DNA of 64,000 bases. Source: Candidatus Zhuqueibacterota bacterium (lineage in GTDB: Bacteria; Zhuqueibacterota; Zhuqueibacteria; Thermofontimicrobiales; Thermofontimicrobiaceae). This document shows, in pieces, positions 1,168 to 30,686 of this stretch (its first letter is position 1; every line of letters begins with the position of its first letter). The DNA is taken from the NCBI GenBank assembly GCA_049322915.1, contig JBMOPW010000034.1, forward strand, positions 224,001-288,000, given 5' to 3'. Under the pieces are notes generated by a model. It had not been told where the DNA came from, made no database searches, and worked only from the letters and a program-made list of their open reading frames with translations. The translations under genes and the position numbers were made by a program.

Positions 1168-3048
1168 ATGAAAAAACTATTGGCAGAAATTTTCAGCGAA
1201 CACGAGGCAACCATTCGTGAGCAATGGGCGTTTCAGCTCAGCAAGAAGTATGAAAAAGTCGACGCAGGCTACAATCACGTCCTGTTCGAACTTCTGAAAG
1301 AAATCTTTGACCTGCCCGATTCGGAAGAGCCGCTTCGCCACGCCGAAACATTTTTATCGCCCATCGACCCACTCGATGAAGGTGAAATCTCCAGCTTTTT
1401 GGAGGACCTGATCATCGGCAAAGTGATATTTTTCAATTCGCTCAAACTGACGACGCTGCCGTTGGCTGTGCTGGAAGCGCAGATGCGATTTTCGAACCAG
1501 TTCGACATGTTCCTGTTTCAACTCTGGAACCGGTTGCACAACAGACAAGCAGAGCAGTTGAGCCGCAAGCGAATCATCTTTGAACAGGCTGCCGACTTTC
1601 TGAAAACCACCATCAATTTCACGGACATCGGGTTGTTCATTCTGGATACCGCGCTCAGGATCGTCTACTGGGGCGATGGCATGAAACGCCTCTACAATAT
1701 CGAGGAATCCGAGGTGCTGGAACATTTTGTCCTTGAAAAATTCCCTTCGCTGGAAAAAGAGGGCGTGCATAAAAAATTCATCGATGCGATTGAGAAGAAC
1801 AAATCCAGCGATCTCACCGGCATCCCCCACAAAACGTGGCGCAAAGGCAAGCGCCTTATCGATTTCAAAATTTCACCGCTTCGGGATTCTAATGACCGAA
1901 CCATCGGCGTCAATGTGCTGGTTCATGATGTGACCCAGCGCGAAAAAGAGAAGAAGGCGCTGATTCAGTACGAGCAATTCATCTCCAATATTCTCAAAGA
2001 CGCGGCCGAGGCCATTTTCGTCCTGGATAAAAATGACTGCGTCACCCTGTGGAACAAGCAAGCAGCGAAAATGTACGGCTACAATTCCGAAGAGATAATC
2101 GGGAAACCCATCTCCCTCATCGTGCCCAACGATGAAAAATCCCAGCAGGAGATTGAACGGATCAACAAGCTGGTGAAGGAGAAAGGATTTGTCCGCGACT
2201 TCGAGACGGAGCGCGTCACCCGCGATGGCCGAAAAATGCTGCTCCAAATCACCCGGACAGCCATCAGAAATGAAAAGGGAGAATATCTGGGCAGTTCGGT
2301 CATTGCGCGGGACATCACCGAGACCCGACGGCTGGAGCAGCAGCTCATTCAATCAGAAAAATTATCTGCCGTGGGGCAACTGGCTGCCGGCATCGCCCAC
2401 GAAGTTGGGTCTCCGCTCACGGCTATTTCATCGCTGGCGCAATTGCTCTACGAGCAAAGCAGCGACGAATCGAATCGGGATAAACTGAAATTAATCAGGG
2501 AACAGATCGACCGCATCGCCCGAATTGTCCGCGAGTTGGTGAATTTCTCCAAACCAATCACCACCACGGTGGGCAATGTCTCTGTGAATGCGGTGATTGA
2601 AGAGGCCGTTCGAATTGTGAAATACGACAAGCGGTTGAAATACATCAAAACGGCGACAGAGCTGTTTCCGGCTCTGCCCTCGATCAAAATTTCGTTCGAT
2701 CAACTGCTGCAGGTGCTGGTGAATATTTTGCTCAACGCCGGTGACGCGCTGGAGGGCAAGAAAAATGGCACCATCACCATCAACAGCCGGCTGGTGGGTG
2801 AAAAAATTATCATCACCATCATGGATAACGGCATTGGTATCGAGCCGGAAAATCTGGATAAAATATTTGAACCATTTTTTACGACCAAAAAGCCCGGCAA
2901 AGGCACGGGACTGGGACTCTGGGTGTGCTACAATATCGTGAAAGGATTTTCCGGGGATTTGCTGGTTGAAAGCGAACAGGGAAAAGGCACTGCCTTTCAT
3001 GTTGTATTGCCGATTTTAACCAATCTGGACGAGAAGACCGATGAATGA
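1168..3048 (+). CDS. Cytoplasmic PAS-PAS sensor histidine kinase
   Basis: Two PAS domains, H-box [12 protein letters not shown] boxes, GTGLGL. Confidence 0.92.
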
Positions 3049-22929: not shown

Positions 22930-24243
22930 TTACCATGATAATTCACCAGTGGCTAAATCCAGAACAGCCACTGCATATTTATAATCGTAAATAGCCTGAA
23001 TGCGATCTACTTTCGCGCGGTTCAGGGATGCGTGCGCGGTGTTTTGATCGAGCAATGTCCCGGCGCCGATTCGGAATCGTTCGCTGGCCAGCCGATAATC
23101 TTCTTCCGCGGATGTTACATTTTCCTGAGTGGCCTGGATCTTTTCAGCCGCTTTTTCAATTTCCAGTAACGCGCTCCGCACATCGAGCGTCACCTGGCGT
23201 TTTGCCTGCTCCAGATCAGCTTCCGCGGCAATCACTTCCGCTTTAGCGCTGCTCACCCCGGCTTTGGTCTGAAAGCCATTGAATAAATTCATGCTCATGC
23301 TCAGTCCGAGGCTGTAGGTATCGAACTCCGTGATGTCGCGTTGTTGTTCCGGCAATTGCACATCCCACCAGCTATAGGAAGCTGAGAAAGACACCGTCGG
23401 ATAATACGAGCTCTGCTGCAACCTCACCCCGGCTTTGGCCTTGTCCAGTTTATTGGTGTATGATTTGTAATCAAGGCGGTTTGCCAGCGCTTTTTCCATG
23501 GCGCGATTGAAATCCACTTTCAGCGCTTCAATATCGCCGTCGATATCTTCCGGAACCACTTCGATCTCATTGCTCACATCGACACCCAGAATGTGATTCA
23601 AATTGATTTTCGCTGTGATGACGCTGTTTTGCGCCTCGATGACTGCCAGTTTGTTTTCCCCGTATATGACCTTTTGCTGATAGACTTCTGCCCGGGAACT
23701 GGTGCCAATTTTTTCCATGGCCTCAATGCGCTTCAATTCATCCAGACTGGTCTGCAGCGCTTCATCGGCGACGAGCGCCAGTTGTTTCGCCTTGAGAACG
23801 TTGTAATAATACAGTTTTACATTGAGCACAACGGACTGCTTCGTCCAGCCCAGATTATTCTCATATTGCTGCTTGTCGGCTTCGCCCTGGCGCAGACTGG
23901 CAACGTTGCGGAAGCCGGTGAAAATAGGCTGCGAGAGGCTGAATTGGTACGCATACGATTCTTTTGAGGCCACCAGTTGATCGAACCGAATGGTGTACAT
24001 CTCCTGTTCTCTGCGATTCCATTGGCCGTAAAAGTTCACCTCCGGCATGAAATTCCCCCGGGCGGATGTGAGTCCGGCGTCAGCCATTTTTTTATAACTC
24101 TCGGCAGACACAATGCTGGTGTTGTTTTCAAGAGCGATTTGAATGCAATCTTTCATTGTCAACGTTTTCTTCTCCTGCGCGTGCAATGAAAATGACAGGC
24201 CGAAGAAAAGAACTAGCAATAAAATCCAGCTAAAACGCTTCAT
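22930..24243 (-). CDS. TolC-family outer-membrane efflux protein
   Basis: Signal peptide, duplicated OEP repeats. Confidence 0.92.
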   Translation of the reverse strand: MKRFSWILLLVLFFGLSFSLHAQEKKTLTMKDCIQIALENNTSIVSAESYKKMADAGLTSARGNFMPEVNFYGQWNRREQEMYTIRFDQLVASKESYAYQFSLSQPIFTGFRNVASLRQGEADKQQYENNLGWTKQSVVLNVKLYYYNVLKAKQLALVADEALQTSLDELKRIEAMEKIGTSSRAEVYQQKVIYGENKLAVIEAQNSVITAKINLNHILGVDVSNEIEVVPEDIDGDIEALKVDFNRAMEKALANRLDYKSYTNKLDKAKAGVRLQQSSYYPTVSFSASYSWWDVQLPEQQRDITEFDTYSLGLSMSMNLFNGFQTKAGVSSAKAEVIAAEADLEQAKRQVTLDVRSALLEIEKAAEKIQATQENVTSAEEDYRLASERFRIGAGTLLDQNTAHASLNRAKVDRIQAIYDYKYAVAVLDLATGELSW

Positions 24244-24279
24244 GGTAACTCCTGTTCTTGTAATTTCTATTCAATTTTT

Positions 24280-24993
24280 TCATGCAAATATTTTCATCAG
24301 CGTGGCGGAAATCAGCACGTAAATGCCGAAAAGCACTACCATCACCCACGCCGATTTTTTCATGCTGAATTTGTACAGCACCGAAAAGGCGATTGCCAGC
24401 AATGCGAAATGCCATATCGAAAATATTTCAATTGATTTGAGAAGATAGTAGAGAAATGATTTCGACGCATCGGCGGGCATCAGCATGGCCAGACTGAAGG
24501 AGATATCGGTTGTATTTTTGCTCAGAATGAGCGGCAACTTGACCAACATGCCCAGAATGCCAATCAATGAAGTATACAGATAAACCGAAAACATTTTCAA
24601 AAATGTCGTCTGTCCGCCCAGGATGAAATTGCCAATGAAAAGGAAAATCGCCGACATCAAAGCAAGGATGAGCCCGGTTCCGACGGCTGCGCCGATTGGG
24701 CCAATAATTTTTCCAAACTTCTCCCCCATGGCTAACGCCGCGTCAATTTGTTCCGCTGATTGGCCCTGCTCTTCGAGCTTTTCCCGCTGTTTCTGCATTT
24801 GCTCCGGCATGGAAATTGGCAGGGTGATCATCGTGAATGCGACCGTGATCAATACCATCACTAACAACGGCATGACCCAGTCCGGTTTTCTGTTGATGCT
24901 CTCGTAGGTTTCCCGAGGTGAAAAAAAGATACCCATGAATCGCTGGAAAAAGTTGAGTTCACGGGTCGGTGTTGACGTACTCACTTCGTTCAT
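24280..24993 (-). CDS. Yip1-family (YknW-like) membrane protein
   Basis: IFFSPRE..E.I..KP.W motif, multi-TM. Confidence 0.85.
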   Translation of the reverse strand: MNEVSTSTPTRELNFFQRFMGIFFSPRETYESINRKPDWVMPLLVMVLITVAFTMITLPISMPEQMQKQREKLEEQGQSAEQIDAALAMGEKFGKIIGPIGAAVGTGLILALMSAIFLFIGNFILGGQTTFLKMFSVYLYTSLIGILGMLVKLPLILSKNTTDISFSLAMLMPADASKSFLYYLLKSIEIFSIWHFALLAIAFSVLYKFSMKKSAWVMVVLFGIYVLISATLMKIFA

Positions 24994-25132
24994 TGAATCC
25001 TCCGCGTTTTTAAGTCCAATGCCTGTGACATCTGGTTATGAATTTTTACGATGTGCAGGCCTGGTTTCGCATCAAGGGAGTAATACCGATGTGCGCTCAA
25101 ATATGCGAACCAATTTTTTTATGCTGAGTAAT

Positions 25133-25158
25133 AACGGATCAATACTATAAAAGTTTCA
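25133..25158 (-). promoter_or_regulatory. SigW-type ECF promoter of the efflux operon
   Basis: TGAAAC-N16-CGTT on the minus strand. Confidence 0.65.
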
Positions 25159-25245
25159 AAATTGACTTTTCAAATCAGTTATATGCAACGAATTTACAGC
25201 GCACTCCCCCCCTGCATCTATGCGCTGTTAAAACACACGATGAGG

Positions 25246-26283
25246 TTAATTGTCCTCTGCGAACGCCTCGACCACAGCCACGGCGTTTTCAATCGGCGTG
25301 CCCGGCTGCAATGCTTTGGCAGGCGCAAGAATGAATCCACCGCCCTGTCCCAGATTTTGCCGGAGCTTGCGCACTTCGTCCCGAATGGAGGCCGGCGTTC
25401 CGAATGGGATGGTGCTCTGGCTGCCCAGGCAGCCCCAGAACGCGATCTTGTCACCCCACTTTCTCTTCAATTCGTACGGATTCATCCCGGCGGCCTCTGG
25501 CTGCACGCTCTCCAGCAGATCAAGTTTTATCTCGATGATGTCAGGAAAAATGTCGGCGATGCTGCCGCAGCAATGAGAGAACACAAATTTTCCCCGGGCA
25601 TGCACTGCTTCGTAAATCCTTGCATAGCGATGCTTGAACAAAGCGCGCCATCGATCCGGGCCGATGATGACGCCTCGCTGATCCCCCCAATCATCGCCGA
25701 AAATGATCGCATCCAGTTCCGGCATCACATCGCAGGTGTAGTTGATGTACGCCATGAACTGTTGGGCAATTCGGTCGAGAAGCTCTTCGTAAAAGTGCGG
25801 CTCAGCGATGACGTCCATCAGCACATTCTCGAACCCCCGAATTCCCCAGCTCGTTTCGAATAATCCCCAACCGATCCAGGCCACTAAAAAATATTCATCT
25901 GAATTGCGCTGAAGGTTCTCCCGAATCTGTTTGATTTCTTCCTCGCTGGCGAAAAATAATTCCGGCGCCGGCCAGTCGTAGCCGGCAAAAGAAGGCGTCG
26001 CCAACGCTGGCTGTTCCAGATGAAACGGCAGTTGATCCATCCGCCAGATCGACCCGTACGGGTCCCGGTGATACCCCTCCCTGTGGGTCGGGATCTTTTT
26101 CATCGTGTGCACAATTTCGATTTCAGCAATATATTTTTTCAATCGCCGTTGCCATGTCCGGTTGCCGAAGTACGCGTTCAGCCTTTCCTCGATATCGCCC
26201 TCAAAGGGAAGCGTATAGGGAACAATTCCCGTTTCCCGATGTTGAACCTGATTCAGAATTATTTCGCGAGGCGTCATCTCCAT
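25246..26283 (-). CDS. Uroporphyrinogen decarboxylase / MtaA-CmuA methyltransferase family protein
   Basis: MTPRE start, GDDWG.Q, HCCG, GGGFILAP. Confidence 0.85.
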   Translation of the reverse strand: MEMTPREIILNQVQHRETGIVPYTLPFEGDIEERLNAYFGNRTWQRRLKKYIAEIEIVHTMKKIPTHREGYHRDPYGSIWRMDQLPFHLEQPALATPSFAGYDWPAPELFFASEEEIKQIRENLQRNSDEYFLVAWIGWGLFETSWGIRGFENVLMDVIAEPHFYEELLDRIAQQFMAYINYTCDVMPELDAIIFGDDWGDQRGVIIGPDRWRALFKHRYARIYEAVHARGKFVFSHCCGSIADIFPDIIEIKLDLLESVQPEAAGMNPYELKRKWGDKIAFWGCLGSQSTIPFGTPASIRDEVRKLRQNLGQGGGFILAPAKALQPGTPIENAVAVVEAFAEDN

Positions 26284-26582
26284 CTCTTTCGTTTTGAGCC
26301 TGGTGTATTTATTTTTCCTTCGACTTGCAGCCAGCGATTCGCTGATTACCAATGCCAGCGCACATGTGACATTATTTCACTGCCCGGCATGCGCATTGCC
26401 CATTCTCCAATTGCCCGGCTGCACAAACTGACAGCAGAATGTCCCTGCAAAACTAATGAATCTAGTTAACTTTTGCAAGGTAAATTTATTTTTTTTGAAT
26501 CCGATATGAATCTTTTCAATGGTACTGACATCTAAATACGTAAATTCAATTTTATCCCATTCACTTTTTTAACAAAGGCGCT

Positions 26583-26789
26583 ATGAGCAAATATATCTGG
26601 AAAATAGCAGTCGTTCTGGTTGGAGCTGGATTAGGTTATGCCTATTACCATTTCATCGGCTGCCGTTCCGGCGTTTGTCCCATTACCAGCAATCCCTGGA
26701 TCAGTACCGGCTACGGTTCACTGATTGGACTGATCTTTGCGTCAGGCACAAAAAAGAGTCAGCCAAAAAAGGAACAGGAGAAACAATAA
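26583..26789 (+). CDS. DUF6132-family small membrane protein
   Basis: G.AYY.FIGCRSGVCPITSNP...YG signature. Confidence 0.8.
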   Translation: MSKYIWKIAVVLVGAGLGYAYYHFIGCRSGVCPITSNPWISTGYGSLIGLIFASGTKKSQPKKEQEKQ

Positions 26790-26948
26790 ATGGATTCATT
26801 GACTCCTATCATTATCTTTGTAGTGTACTTTTTAGTCATGCGGTTCGTTCTCCCCAAAATGGGAATTCCTACCTGAATGTCGAAATCGTGCGACCTTCCG
26901 GGAGAACGTCGAAAAGATGAAAACAAAAAAGAAACGAGTGACATTTAA
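26790..26948 (+). CDS. Putative 52-aa single-TM selenoprotein (TGA at 26874 read as Sec)
   Basis: MDSLTPIIIFVVYFLVMRFVLPKMGIPT-U-MSKSCDLPGERRKDENKKETSDI; RBS AGGAG; ATG abuts the previous stop; hairpin follows the TGA. Confidence 0.6.
26891..26911 (+). other. Candidate bacterial SECIS hairpin
   Basis: CGAC-C-TTC-[CGGGA]-GAA-C-GTCG; loop 22 nt after TGA, G at loop position 2. Confidence 0.45.
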
Positions 26949-26961
26949 GTGGAGATCAGCG

Positions 26962-27171
26962 ATGCCGATTTATGAGTATAGTTGCAAAAATTGTGGTTGT
27001 CAATTCGATGTGTTCCAGTCCATGGGCGCCACGAACGAAAATTTAACTTGTCCATCCTGCGGACAGCCAAAACCGGAGCGAATTTTCTCCACATTTGGTT
27101 CGGCCGGATCAGGTTCGTATTCCGGCAGCTCCGGCGGATGCAGTTCCAGTGGACCATTTACCTGAGGTTAA
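26962..27171 (+). CDS. FmdB-family zinc-ribbon protein, probably with C-terminal Sec (...CSSSGPFT-U-G-stop)
   Basis: MPIYEYSCKNC...CPSCG; TGA 27163 followed by GGT TAA; RBS GGAG. The confidence refers to the FmdB call; Sec is less certain. Confidence 0.8.
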
Positions 27172-27172
27172 A

Positions 27173-27195
27173 TAAAAAAGCAGTTAGCTTTTTTA
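27173..27195 (+). other. Candidate bacterial SECIS hairpin
   Basis: TAAAAAAGC-[AGTTA]-GCTTTTTTA; loop 16 nt after TGA, contains GU. Confidence 0.5.
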
Positions 27196-27229
27196 GACAT
27201 GAAGTAACCAAAATAATTCTGGAGGAGAA

Positions 27230-27829
27230 ATGAAAAAAATTAGTTATACAATGATACTTATCATAGTTATGTTGCTGGCCGGATGTTCCGGAGAAACAGA
27301 CGAGTCCATCGCTCAGAATAAAGTGCAAAAAGTTGATAAGGTGAATGTCGAGAACGTCGCTTCGAAAAATTTTGTGCTCACTTTTAACCAGGGTTTGGAG
27401 AAAGCGAAAAAAGAGAAGAAGAACATGCTCATCGACTTTTACACGGATTGGTGCCATTGGTGCAAAGTGATGGATGAGAAAACTTTCAGCGAAAAAGCAG
27501 TGGCTGAAAAACTGAGCAATCGGTTTGTCACGGTTCGAATCGATGCGGAGGCCAATACAGGGTCTAATTCATTTAAAGGACATACATTCAATAATATGGA
27601 AATGACGCGGGCGTTTGGGGTCACAGGATTCCCATCACTCATCTTCATCTCCCCTGAAGAAGAAGTCATCACGAAAATCCCGGGCTATGTCCCGGCTGAG
27701 CAGTTCGCCTACATCCTCGATTATATCGATCAGGAATGTTACAAAAAGCAGATGAGCCTTGAAGAGTTCATGAAGAAAAAGGGCGAATGCGACGACACAA
27801 CTGAGAAGCCCAAGTCGGACAATATGTAA
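27230..27829 (+). CDS. Thioredoxin-family (SoxW-like) lipoprotein
   Basis: Lipobox LAGC, WCHWC active site, GFP cis-Pro. Confidence 0.9.
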   Translation: MKKISYTMILIIVMLLAGCSGETDESIAQNKVQKVDKVNVENVASKNFVLTFNQGLEKAKKEKKNMLIDFYTDWCHWCKVMDEKTFSEKAVAEKLSNRFVTVRIDAEANTGSNSFKGHTFNNMEMTRAFGVTGFPSLIFISPEEEVITKIPGYVPAEQFAYILDYIDQECYKKQMSLEEFMKKKGECDDTTEKPKSDNM

Positions 27830-27891
27830 TTCAATGTCCGAATTCAATCCGGACAATTCGCGGCTGACGAATCAGTGACCATAATGATTGC

Positions 27892-27925
27892 AGGGACTCC
27901 ACCGAATAGGTGAGTCCCTTTTTTT
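27892..27925 (+). terminator. Rho-independent terminator
   Basis: AGGGACT...AGTCCCT followed by a T-run. Confidence 0.8.
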
Positions 27926-28328
27926 ATCTGTGAAAAATCAGTGCGCTGAATTGCTCCGGCTCAGCGCTCGCAAAACCGCCCATTGATGGAGATGGGTTCA
28001 CGCGAAGAAAATCAATTCTGTTTTTATCTGACATCGCTGCCTCAGAAAAACTCCCCTGCTGACCCTGTTTTTGCCGCCTTTTATGTTCTTCCTTGCTTCC
28101 GGCAAAAAAAAATCTTGCTTCATGAGAAATAATTTGTAAATTAATGCTGTGACTATTCAGGCTTTTATTCTTGCCTCAAAGGCGCCAGGTCACAGAGTTA
28201 TAAGAAGTTTCCAACTTTTTATTCAATCTTTTAATCCAATAGCGCCGGGAATTGAGTTGTGGTGGCCGACACGATTTCACCAGGAATAACTTCAATAAAA
28301 GTTGACAAATAAATATAGGACATGAAAT

Positions 28329-30686
28329 ATGAATGCAAAACCCAGATTCATTTTTGACTCTGACGTCGAAAACAAAGCGATTGAAAAATCTGAACACGAG
28401 GCAATTTATCCCCCTACTGAAAAAATTCCTGTCATCATGGTGCCAAACTTTCCCACGTTAGGAAAGCTAGCTGCCATTCGCTTTTTAGAGTGGGTCCAAA
28501 AAAATCCCGGCGGGGTCATTTCCCTGCCGACGGGAAAAACGCCGGAGCATTTCATCAAGTGGGTCAGATACTACCTCAAGAATTGGGACAAAGAAGCGGT
28601 AAAAAAGGACCTTGAGTCATGGGGAATAAAAACAGAAACCCTGCCGGATATGAAAAGCCTTCACTTTGTCCAGATCGACGAATTCTACCCGATCAATCCG
28701 CAGCAACACAATAGCTTTTACCACTACATCAACAAATTTTACATCAAGGGATTCGGCCTCGATCGGTCCAAGTCCCTGCTCATCGATTGCTATAAAGTTG
28801 GTGTGCCCCAGGGCATGGCCATTGAGAAAATTTTTCCGGAGCAGAAAGTCAATCTGGAATTGCGGACGAGGCAGCCGAATTCAACGCTGGAACGGATACA
28901 AAAGACTGTCATCGAGCAGGTCGACCATTATTGCACCGAGTACGAAACTCAAATTCGTAACAGAGGCGGCATCGGATTTTTCCTGGGTGGCATTGGCCCG
29001 GACGGCCACATTGGTTTCAACGTCAGGGGGTCGGATCTCTATTCGACGACCCGACTCACGCCCACCAATTATGAGACCCAGGCTGCTGCCGCGACCGACA
29101 TGGGCGGCATCGAGATTGCCAGAAATCGGCTGGTCATCACCATTGGACTGAACACCATCACGTTCAACAAAAATGCCGTGGCAATCATCATTGCTGCTGG
29201 CGAAACTAAAGCGCCCATTGTCGCCGACGCGATCGAACAAGAGAAAAACAATCAGTACCCGGCCTCTGCGCTGCGCGAGTTGCCTCACGCCCGTTTCTAC
29301 CTGACACGGGGCGCTGCGAAAAATCTGGTGGAACGCCGTTATCACGAATTGCTCCGACAGGAGAACATGTCCGAGCAGGACATGATGCGGATTGTCACCA
29401 ACCTCTCGATGATCAATTCTGTTCGGCTCAAAGATTTAACCCAGGAGCATTTCAAGCAGAATAAATTCGGCGCGTTGATTTTGCAAAAGACAAAGATGAA
29501 GATGGCGGCCATCACTCAATTCGCTGAAGATCAAATCAAGCGTAAAATACAGGATGGCCTGGATCCCGTGTCTGGCCAGGTGTTCATGCATACTGCCCCG
29601 CATCACGATGATGAGATGTTAGGATTCTGGCCGTACATGGTGCATCTGGTTCGTGATCCTCAGAACACGCATTACTTCAATTATATGACGAGCGGCTTCA
29701 ACGCGGTGACCAACAAGTATGTCCTTGATTTGTTGCTCAATCTCCGGCAGCACATTTCAACGCCTCGCTTTGAACAGTTGCTTCGCGAAAATTATTTTGA
29801 CCCGGAAAGCATGGAGGGCAAGAACGGGGACGTGCATCATTACCTGGATGGCATTGCCGCGCACAGCCGCTCCATGCGCCAGGAGGCGGAGAGCAAGCGG
29901 CTTCTCCGCAATCTCATTTTCCTGTTTGAGGAGGACAGCCCGGTTCATCTCAAAGACCGCATCGCTGAAATGATCAGCTATTTCAAAACTCAGTACCCGG
30001 GCAAAAAGGATCTTCATTACATTCAGCAACTCAAAGGGATGATCCGCGAATGGGAAGCCGACCTGGTCTGGGCCTATCTTGGGTTCAGCGTGGAATTCAT
30101 CAATCACCTCCGGCTGGGTTTTTATAAAGGCGACATTTTTACAGAAGAGCCTGATTTACAACGGGATGTTCAACCTGTCCTGGAACTGATGGAGCGGATT
30201 AAACCCACCGTCATCACCGTCGCATTCGATCCGGAGGGCAGCGGGCCGGATACGCATTACAAAGTGATGCAGTCAATCAGCGAAGCGCTGAAACTTTACG
30301 AGAAAAAACACAGCCCCCTCAACATTGAAATTTGGGGCTATCGGAATGTCTGGCATCGATTCCATCCGGTCGAAGCCACCACCTACGTCCCGGTGTCCAT
30401 CAATTCATTCGCCAGCCTGGACCAGGCATTCATGAACTGCTTTGGCTCGCAGCGCTCCGCCTCATTTCCCAGCTACGAATTCGACGGACCATTTTCGCGA
30501 TTGGCTCAGCAAATCATGGTGAGCCAATATCAGAAGGTCATCAACTGTCTGGGACAGGATTATTTCTTTCACAACGACCACCCGCGGCTCAGGGCTGCGC
30601 ATGGCTTCAACTTTCTCAGGAAGATGACGCTCAATGAATTCTACCAGAGCTCCCTGGAATTGAAAAAGAGCACTGAGAACATATAA
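28329..30686 (+). CDS. nagB: Glucosamine-6-phosphate deaminase fused to a PIG-L/LmbE-like domain
   Basis: LPTGKTP, IDEFY, GGIGPDGHIGFN; C-terminal APHHDDE and PDTH. Confidence 0.88.
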   Translation: MNAKPRFIFDSDVENKAIEKSEHEAIYPPTEKIPVIMVPNFPTLGKLAAIRFLEWVQKNPGGVISLPTGKTPEHFIKWVRYYLKNWDKEAVKKDLESWGIKTETLPDMKSLHFVQIDEFYPINPQQHNSFYHYINKFYIKGFGLDRSKSLLIDCYKVGVPQGMAIEKIFPEQKVNLELRTRQPNSTLERIQKTVIEQVDHYCTEYETQIRNRGGIGFFLGGIGPDGHIGFNVRGSDLYSTTRLTPTNYETQAAAATDMGGIEIARNRLVITIGLNTITFNKNAVAIIIAAGETKAPIVADAIEQEKNNQYPASALRELPHARFYLTRGAAKNLVERRYHELLRQENMSEQDMMRIVTNLSMINSVRLKDLTQEHFKQNKFGALILQKTKMKMAAITQFAEDQIKRKIQDGLDPVSGQVFMHTAPHHDDEMLGFWPYMVHLVRDPQNTHYFNYMTSGFNAVTNKYVLDLLLNLRQHISTPRFEQLLRENYFDPESMEGKNGDVHHYLDGIAAHSRSMRQEAESKRLLRNLIFLFEEDSPVHLKDRIAEMISYFKTQYPGKKDLHYIQQLKGMIREWEADLVWAYLGFSVEFINHLRLGFYKGDIFTEEPDLQRDVQPVLELMERIKPTVITVAFDPEGSGPDTHYKVMQSISEALKLYEKKHSPLNIEIWGYRNVWHRFHPVEATTYVPVSINSFASLDQAFMNCFGSQRSASFPSYEFDGPFSRLAQQIMVSQYQKVINCLGQDYFFHNDHPRLRAAHGFNFLRKMTLNEFYQSSLELKKSTENI

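Follow-up and report, generated by a model that had tools for sequence, protein, structure and literature searches.

Proteins of the family DUF6132 (PF19628) are very small membrane proteins that carry a C-x4-C motif after a hydrophobic helix, and the DsbD/CcdA relay places paired redox residues at the membrane. In eukaryotes, SELENOK and SELENOS are single-pass membrane proteins whose luminal N terminus is short and whose cytosolic tail, which is disordered, bears selenocysteine (Sec, U). Among the short selenoproteins covered in a 2026 review, TsoA with its LULAxC motif, KCU-star/DUF466 and the dual-CXXC OS_HP3 have a UGA missed by gene callers, a Sec near a Cys, and Cys homologues (PMC13188914). 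The families of Haft and Tolstoy (2025) have NCBIfam models, according to the table of the same review (PMC13188914), and the database BSepDB was built by homology to 111 known families (PMC13326102). FmdB-family selenoproteins with Sec in Cys motifs were found in marine metagenomes, and their authors read them as thiol redox proteins (PMC2398784).

Here we describe a gene in a window of 64,000 nucleotides, the whole stretch of DNA that was analysed, that resembles these systems in several respects. With high confidence, on sequence evidence, we regard the frame at 26790-26948 as a real selenoprotein gene whose TGA is decoded as Sec. The conservation of the TGA, a coding constraint on both of its sides, the pairing of Cys and Sec forms, a downstream hairpin, the Sec machinery of the host and the packing of the genes all argue for Sec decoding; the selenoprotein reading put forward in the original prediction is strongly supported by the conserved TGA, the Cys homologues, the covarying hairpin and the machinery. 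The product would be a 52-residue protein with one N-terminal transmembrane helix and a charged tail that is predicted to be disordered. Taken as a whole, the explanation of the locus as a gene for a Sec-decoded membrane mini-protein is probably the best one.

The reading frame and its neighbours in the window

The open reading frame (26790-26948, plus strand) has 52 codons and a TAA stop (26946-26948), with an in-frame TGA at 26874-26876, the position of residue 29. When this TGA is read as U, the frame encodes MDSLTPIIIFVVYFLVMRFVLPKMGIPT-U-MSKSCDLPGERRKDENKKETSDI, in which a helix (residues 4-23) is followed by LPKMGIPT-U29-MSKS-C34 and a charged tail. The hydrophobic helix, the motif around the TGA and the charged tail had all been described in the original prediction and are present in the sequence. 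The codon of Cys34, the putative partner of U29 in a U-x4-C motif, is TGC at 26889-26891.

The first gene of the apparent operon (26583-26789, plus strand) encodes a 68-aa DUF6132 protein (PF19628, E 1.1e-10) with two predicted helices on either side of GCRSGVC, and the claim that its C-x4-C has the same spacing as U-x4-C is therefore correct. Its TAA stop (26787-26789) is followed at the very next base, 26790, by the ATG of the Sec gene, and an AGGAG ribosome-binding site, read from the sequence at 26776-26780 on the plus strand, lies 9 nt upstream of this ATG, both as predicted. Purine-rich sites are found upstream of the starts of most homologues as well. In one relative (L012, ~1638-1642, minus strand) the DUF6132 stop is itself a TGA, after which the ATG of the Sec gene follows at once and in frame; careless read-through there would fuse DUF6132 with the Sec gene.

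Downstream of the Sec gene lies an FmdB-type zinc-ribbon gene (26962-27165, plus strand; 67 aa; PF09723, E 2.7e-15; TIGR02605), whose product has a Ser/Gly-rich tail and ends in GGCSSSGPFT. Its ATG at 26962 begins 13 nt past the read-through stop and 85 nt past the TGA, a difference already claimed and now confirmed in the sequence. The median distance from the read-through stop to the FmdB start is 4 nt across 37 loci, and the distance is at most 20 nt in 33 of them; the two overlap as TAATG in five loci and by 14 nt in three. Such tight spacing fits the read-through frame only, and not a stop at the TGA. The last gene of the apparent operon (27230-27829, plus strand) encodes a thioredoxin-fold lipoprotein with a WCHWC motif (PF13098, PF03190), which has partial NCBIfam matches to DsbD and DsbH and resembles the C-terminal domain of DsbD as well as DsbH. 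Near its C terminus (27740-27829) a second conserved Cys pair (QECYKK...KGEC/KGDC) was seen in all 15 of the listed orthologues. A gene for a 785-residue protein (28329-30686), with weak matches only, to a glucosamine-6-phosphate isomerase-like domain and a PIG-L deacetylase domain, is kept downstream of the operon in several relatives.

The host genome contains tRNA-Sec, a SelA gene next to a SelB gene, and two SelD genes. Of the two SelD genes (G000:C2:57472-58398 and G000:C14:562220-563146), one has an in-frame TGA, as in a Sec-containing SelD; the other is located within an open frame of 736 codons, suggesting a fusion protein.

Conservation of the TGA codon and Cys homologues

The recoded protein was searched in 61 related genomes with stops read through, and matches were kept at E <= 3.5e-4. 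A homologue was found in 47 of these genomes, and all 47 have TGA at the aligned position, well beyond what chance would give. The start codon (ATG in 42, GTG in three and TTG in two) is placed exactly 28 codons before the TGA in 39 of the 47 Sec forms. Upstream of the TGA, P (-7) and G (-4) never vary and T (-1) is kept in 46 of 47, and downstream M (+1) is present in 40, S (+2) in 39 and C (+5) in 46, so that the conserved downstream Cys, whose lack had been named as evidence against the selenoprotein, does exist. The entropies at the first, second and third codon positions are 1.09, 0.64 and 1.48 for codons +1 to +5, and 0.89, 0.55 and 1.64 upstream of the TGA. Codons +1 to +5, which are located upstream of the hairpin, thus vary mostly at the third position, indicating that the frame stays coding past the TGA. 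Ser+2 is encoded by both TCN and AGY codons, and Cys+5 by TGC in 30 and TGT in 16 of the sequences.

A profile built from the 47 Sec forms was run on 167 genomes of the host phylum and had matches in 100 of them, of which 98 have TGA, one has TGC for Cys (G126) and one has TAA (G015). The TGA position was inspected in 52 loci, and the other 46 of the 98 were counted as TGA-carrying matches. Mixed stop codons, another result that had been named as evidence against the prediction, amount to a single TAA in these 100 genomes: the interrupted genes have TGA in 98 of 99 cases, and TAG in none. Nearly all matches are in the host class (98 of 130 genomes), with two in the 37 genomes sampled from other families. 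The sole relative with TAA at the Sec position (L049; G015:C54, ~1483-1560, minus strand) has a one-residue insertion behind the TAA, no in-register hairpin, and neither FmdB nor DUF6132 nearby, in a genome that has SelA; it may be a decaying copy.

Outside the host phylum the family was detected mostly in Cys form. A pattern scan of named genomes with Cys at the U position yielded 12 loci, all continuous ORFs of the type ...LPKLGIPT-C-MSGAC..., in six or more phyla; their labels are Myxococcales/Deltaproteobacteria, Bryobacteraceae, Chloroflexota, Cyanobacteriota, Planctomycetes, Bacteroidota and Desulfobacteraceae. A word-index search with the recoded protein returned no candidate homologue, and a search of a protein atlas with a natural Cys form returned only a cluster labelled "hypothetical protein" (score 0.89). 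An exhaustive profile search of 1.84 billion representatives, on the other hand, gave 1395 proteins at E <= 1e-3, of which 58 reach E <= 1e-10; nearly all of the 1395 are 45-100 residues long. The homologues share the motif T-C-M-S-G-x-C with Cys exactly at the TGA column, and the second Cys is invariant in the alignment of Cys forms. Four metagenome loci (L089-L092) that looked spurious or motif-less were left out of the counts.

Among the 152 sequences stored, the two motif positions read C...C in 110 and W...C in 28, the latter being TGA forms whose TGA gene callers had translated as Trp. Sec forms with their TGA rendered as Trp include P0002, P0003, P0008, P0021, P0030 and others in public gene calls, and some of these calls run into unrelated sequence, so the database entries of the family are partly wrong. 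The named entries are given as "hypothetical protein" throughout the source records.

Sec forms also occur in another phylum. Of 81 genomes from the class to which one planctomycete record belongs, 23 gave a match, with TGA at the same position in 15 loci and Cys in five; these counts exclude three spurious or motif-less loci (L104, L115, L122). SelA was detected in all four of the TGA-form planctomycete genomes tested; in the single Cys-form genome that was tested, no SelA was found.

The hairpin downstream of the TGA

The window has a SECIS-like hairpin at 26891-26911 on the plus strand, recognised by folding and by its in-register relatives. Its sequence is CGAC-C-UUC [CGGGA] GAA-C-GUCG, that is, 4 bp, a C.C mismatch and 3 bp around a G-rich loop that begins 22 nt past the UGA, with a folding energy of -6.0 kcal/mol. 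A covarying hairpin with a G-rich loop is located 16-23 nt past the TGA. In the host phylum its stem comprises 7 bp between +19 and +35, counted from the T of the TGA, and 35 of the 47 Sec forms have GGN in the loop (+26 to +28). Paired cells make up 74.6% of the alignment, compared with 61.6% after shuffling and 32-58% when the register is slid, and there are 66 double-change cells compared with 27 after shuffling; neither of the observed values was reached in any of 500 shuffles. At one stem pair, for example, CG is found 16 times, GC 14 times, UA five times and AU once. Pairing in register at five or more of the seven positions was observed in 40 of 47 Sec forms and in two of 13 Cys forms, and five Sec forms that are out of register have other hairpins, with UGGAU, GGUC or CGGGC loops. 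Folding the RNA behind the TGA had been suggested with the prediction, and this check turned out in its favour, with a fixed distance and compensatory changes in the relatives.

We also applied the published bSECIS model, which has a loop of 3-9 nt, a stem of at least 4 bp, a G in the first two loop positions, a distance of 16-37 nt from the UGA and an MFE <= -7.5, as given in the review (PMC13188914). As coded in this analysis, the model accepts 34 of 47 Sec forms and 14 of 15 planctomycete TGA forms, which have GUC, GUU or GGUC loops, as well as 12 of 94 shuffles and eight of 20 Cys forms. The hairpin of the window falls below the cut-off as implemented, in energy and in stem length, and so do those of its nearest relatives; altogether 13 of the 47 Sec forms fail. 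Its upper stem has only 3 bp, in the same position as in the relatives. Since eight of the 20 Cys forms and some of the shuffles pass too, the model is permissive, and the covariation is therefore the stronger evidence for the hairpin. An Rfam scan of positions 24000-30000 at E <= 10 gave chance matches only, with no SECIS family among them.

Three of the Cys forms (L053, L054 and L055) have a strong SECIS-like hairpin at the usual distance, which in L053 has a stem of 8 bp and a GGC loop and is found 23 nt past the TGC. The hairpins kept in these loci could be relics of a recent change from Sec to Cys.

Topology, possible function and comparison with known systems

AF2 run on the 47-sequence alignment modelled a helix at residues 4-23 (pLDDT 87-88) and the rest of the protein with low confidence, and the hydropathy peaks over residues 1-21. 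The protein thus has the one hydrophobic spanning helix of a single-pass membrane protein. After the helix comes the core motif L-P-(K/R)-(L/M)-G-(V/I)-P-T-U-M-S-x-x-C, followed by the charged tail. Across the 47 sequences the mean number of K+R is 0.13 on the N side and 6.6 over the stretch that begins 12 residues before U and includes the C terminus. This asymmetry suggests an outward-facing N terminus and an inward-facing C terminus, which would place U29 and C34 on the cytoplasmic side; we infer this topology by the positive-inside rule, from charge counts and a low-confidence model.

To get clues about the function we examined the gene neighbourhoods. Among 52 Sec-form loci of the host phylum, 42 have the FmdB gene immediately after the Sec gene, compared with none of the 23 planctomycete loci, and the view that FmdB always accompanies the Sec form was rejected accordingly; FmdB was found beside none of the 34 Cys-form loci. 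DUF6132 is encoded within 1.5 kb in 23 of the 52 Sec-form loci and 15 of the 34 Cys-form loci, and was found in none of the 23 planctomycete loci; near-duplicates are frequent among the Cys-form contigs, so that these context counts overstate independence. The thioredoxin lipoprotein gene was seen behind FmdB in 15 of 48 loci, every one of them from a close relative. The FmdB proteins beside the Sec gene have an invariant Cys in their Ser/Gly-rich tail (37 of 37 loci). Seven zinc-ribbon paralogues are encoded in the host genome, of which one follows the Sec gene and the other six have different tails. In the 37-locus alignment the tail, encoded in the window at 27120-27165, ends in C-x(3-5)-G-x-F-[STG].

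Two myxobacterium-like lineages encode, in this order, a thioredoxin, DUF6132, the Cys form and a DsbD_TM-thioredoxin fusion. The planctomycete neighbours are MBL-rhodanese, TauE, Pyr_redox_2 and DsrE, and among 20 planctomycete loci ArsR-type regulators are upstream of four, rhodanese or rhodanese-YgaP genes are found at five, and RND efflux parts at five. Within the host class there is a syntenic pair of loci in which L013 has DUF72, the Sec form, FmdB, DUF6132 and a multihaem cytochrome, whereas L062 has DUF72, the Cys form, DUF6132 and a multihaem cytochrome, and no FmdB; this contrast is a single case.

Based on the sequence and its neighbours, we tentatively propose that the protein functions as a thiol or persulfide redox relay. 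U29 and C34 would be joined reversibly in a selenylsulfide on the cytoplasmic side of the membrane and would shuttle either reducing equivalents or sulfane sulfur between soluble thiol proteins and partners in the membrane or periplasm. In the host lineage the FmdB-type zinc ribbon, whose tail Cys is invariant, is a candidate for the soluble partner; on the membrane or periplasmic side, DUF6132, thioredoxin-fold or DsbD-type proteins, and rhodanese or TauE systems come into question. The variation of the neighbours among lineages and the limitation of the FmdB link to the host phylum speak against this relay. A more specific version, which we regard as speculative and rather unlikely, is that the Sec protein and the two-helix DUF6132 make up a minimal three-helix membrane device for reducing power, sulfane sulfur or selenium. 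Its cargo would cross the cytoplasmic membrane or travel along it, supplied on the inside by the Cys-tailed FmdB zinc ribbon and received by the exported thioredoxin-fold lipoprotein, and the device would be analogous to DsbD/CcdA, as a relay of mini-proteins with Sec as the reactive centre.

Several other explanations of the locus were weighed. The TGA might be an ordinary stop that ends a 28-residue hydrophobic micropeptide, with the sequence behind it acting as an RNA leader or hairpin that controls FmdB. In its favour, some of the downstream conservation is at the RNA level, as the conserved and covarying hairpin shows, all 30 Pro codons at +8 are CCG, and the hairpin of the window is under the bSECIS cut-off. 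However, the periodicity, the synonymous Ser and Cys codons and the near-invariant Cys are found in codons +1 to +5, before the hairpin. The Cys homologues are moreover continuous ORFs, the interrupted genes have TGA and never TAG, the FmdB start abuts the read-through stop rather than the TGA, and the planctomycete TGA forms have no FmdB behind them; an ordinary stop thus seems very improbable. Even less can be said for two mini-ORFs, in which translation would stop at the TGA and restart at the following ATG (TGAATG), and we consider this arrangement extremely improbable. An ATG right after the TGA is indeed present in 40 of 47 Sec forms, but Met follows Cys also in the uninterrupted Cys forms (TCMSG), where it must be a conserved residue of one protein; moreover, non-start codons (CTC, GTT or GGT) stand there in five of the 47 Sec forms, and GGC, ACG, GCC or GGG in several planctomycete forms.

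Two further explanations accept Sec decoding and differ in what it serves. One is a true selenoprotein whose task is to bind soft metals or metalloids (Hg, Cu, Zn, Cd, As), or to pass them on, at the inner membrane face. The cytoplasmic Cys pair of MerT recalls the membrane-proximal pair seen here, and the metal motif GMTCxxC recalls T-C-x4-C. RND efflux parts (ACR_tran, CusB/HlyD-type, OEP) are encoded beside the five planctomycete loci mentioned above and on one Cys-form contig, ArsR-family regulators are upstream of four planctomycete loci, the partner in the window is a zinc ribbon with a Cys tail, and the table of the review includes metal-related selenoproteins (PMC13188914). Against this role, no match to MerT, HMA or a metal family was obtained in Pfam or NCBIfam, and the commoner neighbours are thioredoxin-fold proteins, DsbD_TM, rhodanese, TauE, DsrE and DUF6132. 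Furthermore, the ArsR family of regulators also includes persulfide sensors. As the neighbours share membrane thiol, disulfide and sulfane-sulfur chemistry, we favour the redox relay and consider a metal role unlikely. The other explanation adds a role to Sec decoding, namely that of a selenium gauge by which FmdB would be translated only when ribosomes pass the UGA and end beside its start. It is in line with the short distances and overlaps between the read-through stop and the FmdB start, and with the presence of FmdB in L013 (Sec) and its absence from L062 (Cys). Tight spacing is ordinary in operons, however, several FmdB genes have a purine-rich site of their own, the planctomycete Sec forms are without FmdB, and the syntenic contrast is one case, so that we regard the gauge as improbable.

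Turning back to the proposed selenoprotein, it could not be assigned to a described family, and the original prediction, which had not recognised one, stands in this respect too. Pfam had nothing for the protein of the window and gave one stray match only among 71 Cys forms, and NCBIfam release 20.0 had no family for four Sec forms at E <= 1 or for the 71 Cys forms at E <= 0.01. A PDB profile search gave chance matches to a receptor helix only. Table 1 of the 2026 review, with 119 families, includes none with a U-x4-C motif or a matching description (PMC13188914). Among the full texts searched, those on selenoproteins with FmdB, DUF6132, a transmembrane helix or a small membrane protein contained no description of it. 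Membership in DUF6132 was rejected, with no PF19628 match and an hhalign probability of 8.4%, as was membership among the catalogued NCBIfam selenoproteins (TsoA, TsoB, TsoC, TsoX, TsoY, DG, DW, DF and others), of which no model matched, and an identity as FeoB-associated Cys-rich membrane protein (PF12669), for which there was no Pfam match.

Judged by its sequences, the family is large, with proteins of 45-90 residues that mostly have Cys at the U position, while predicted Sec forms dominate the host class. The gene of the window is very probably the founding example of a widespread small-protein family that no database names. It would add a selenoprotein family that was missed by current catalogues and annotation pipelines and is nearly universal in one class of selenium-rich anaerobes, and at about 50 residues it would be among the smallest bacterial selenoproteins. 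Public calls truncate such genes or read their TGA as Trp, and selenoproteome counts for these lineages are therefore too low. DUF6132 and the FmdB zinc ribbons are hereby tied to thioredoxin, DsbD, rhodanese and TauE, and a membrane thiol or persulfide role for them becomes testable. What is new is the family, its size, its design and the link of DUF6132 and FmdB to thiol and persulfide chemistry; the mechanism of Sec decoding is ordinary.

DUF6132 resembles the new family in size, in its membrane location, in a C-x4-C that follows a hydrophobic helix and in common gene neighbourhoods, and its motif G-C-x-S/T-G-x-C is similar to T-U/C-M-S-G-x-C, but it has two helices with the Cys pair between them, whereas the new family has one. 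From the small catalogued selenoproteins the family is set apart by its lack of model matches and by a U-x4-C located behind a membrane anchor. SELENOK and SELENOS have a similar layout but carry Sec near the C terminus, not adjacent to the membrane, and use a SECIS in the 3' UTR; to our knowledge, they have no sequence relationship to the new family. The FmdB gene of the window has Cys only, in contrast to the marine FmdB selenoproteins, and the Sec is found in a separate membrane protein encoded upstream. As to the DsbD/CcdA relay, Cys-form genes directly precede DsbD_TM-thioredoxin fusions, and the operon of the window ends with a lipoprotein similar to the C-terminal domain of DsbD. DsbD/CcdA has six helices, compared with one here, and is not homologous to the new protein.
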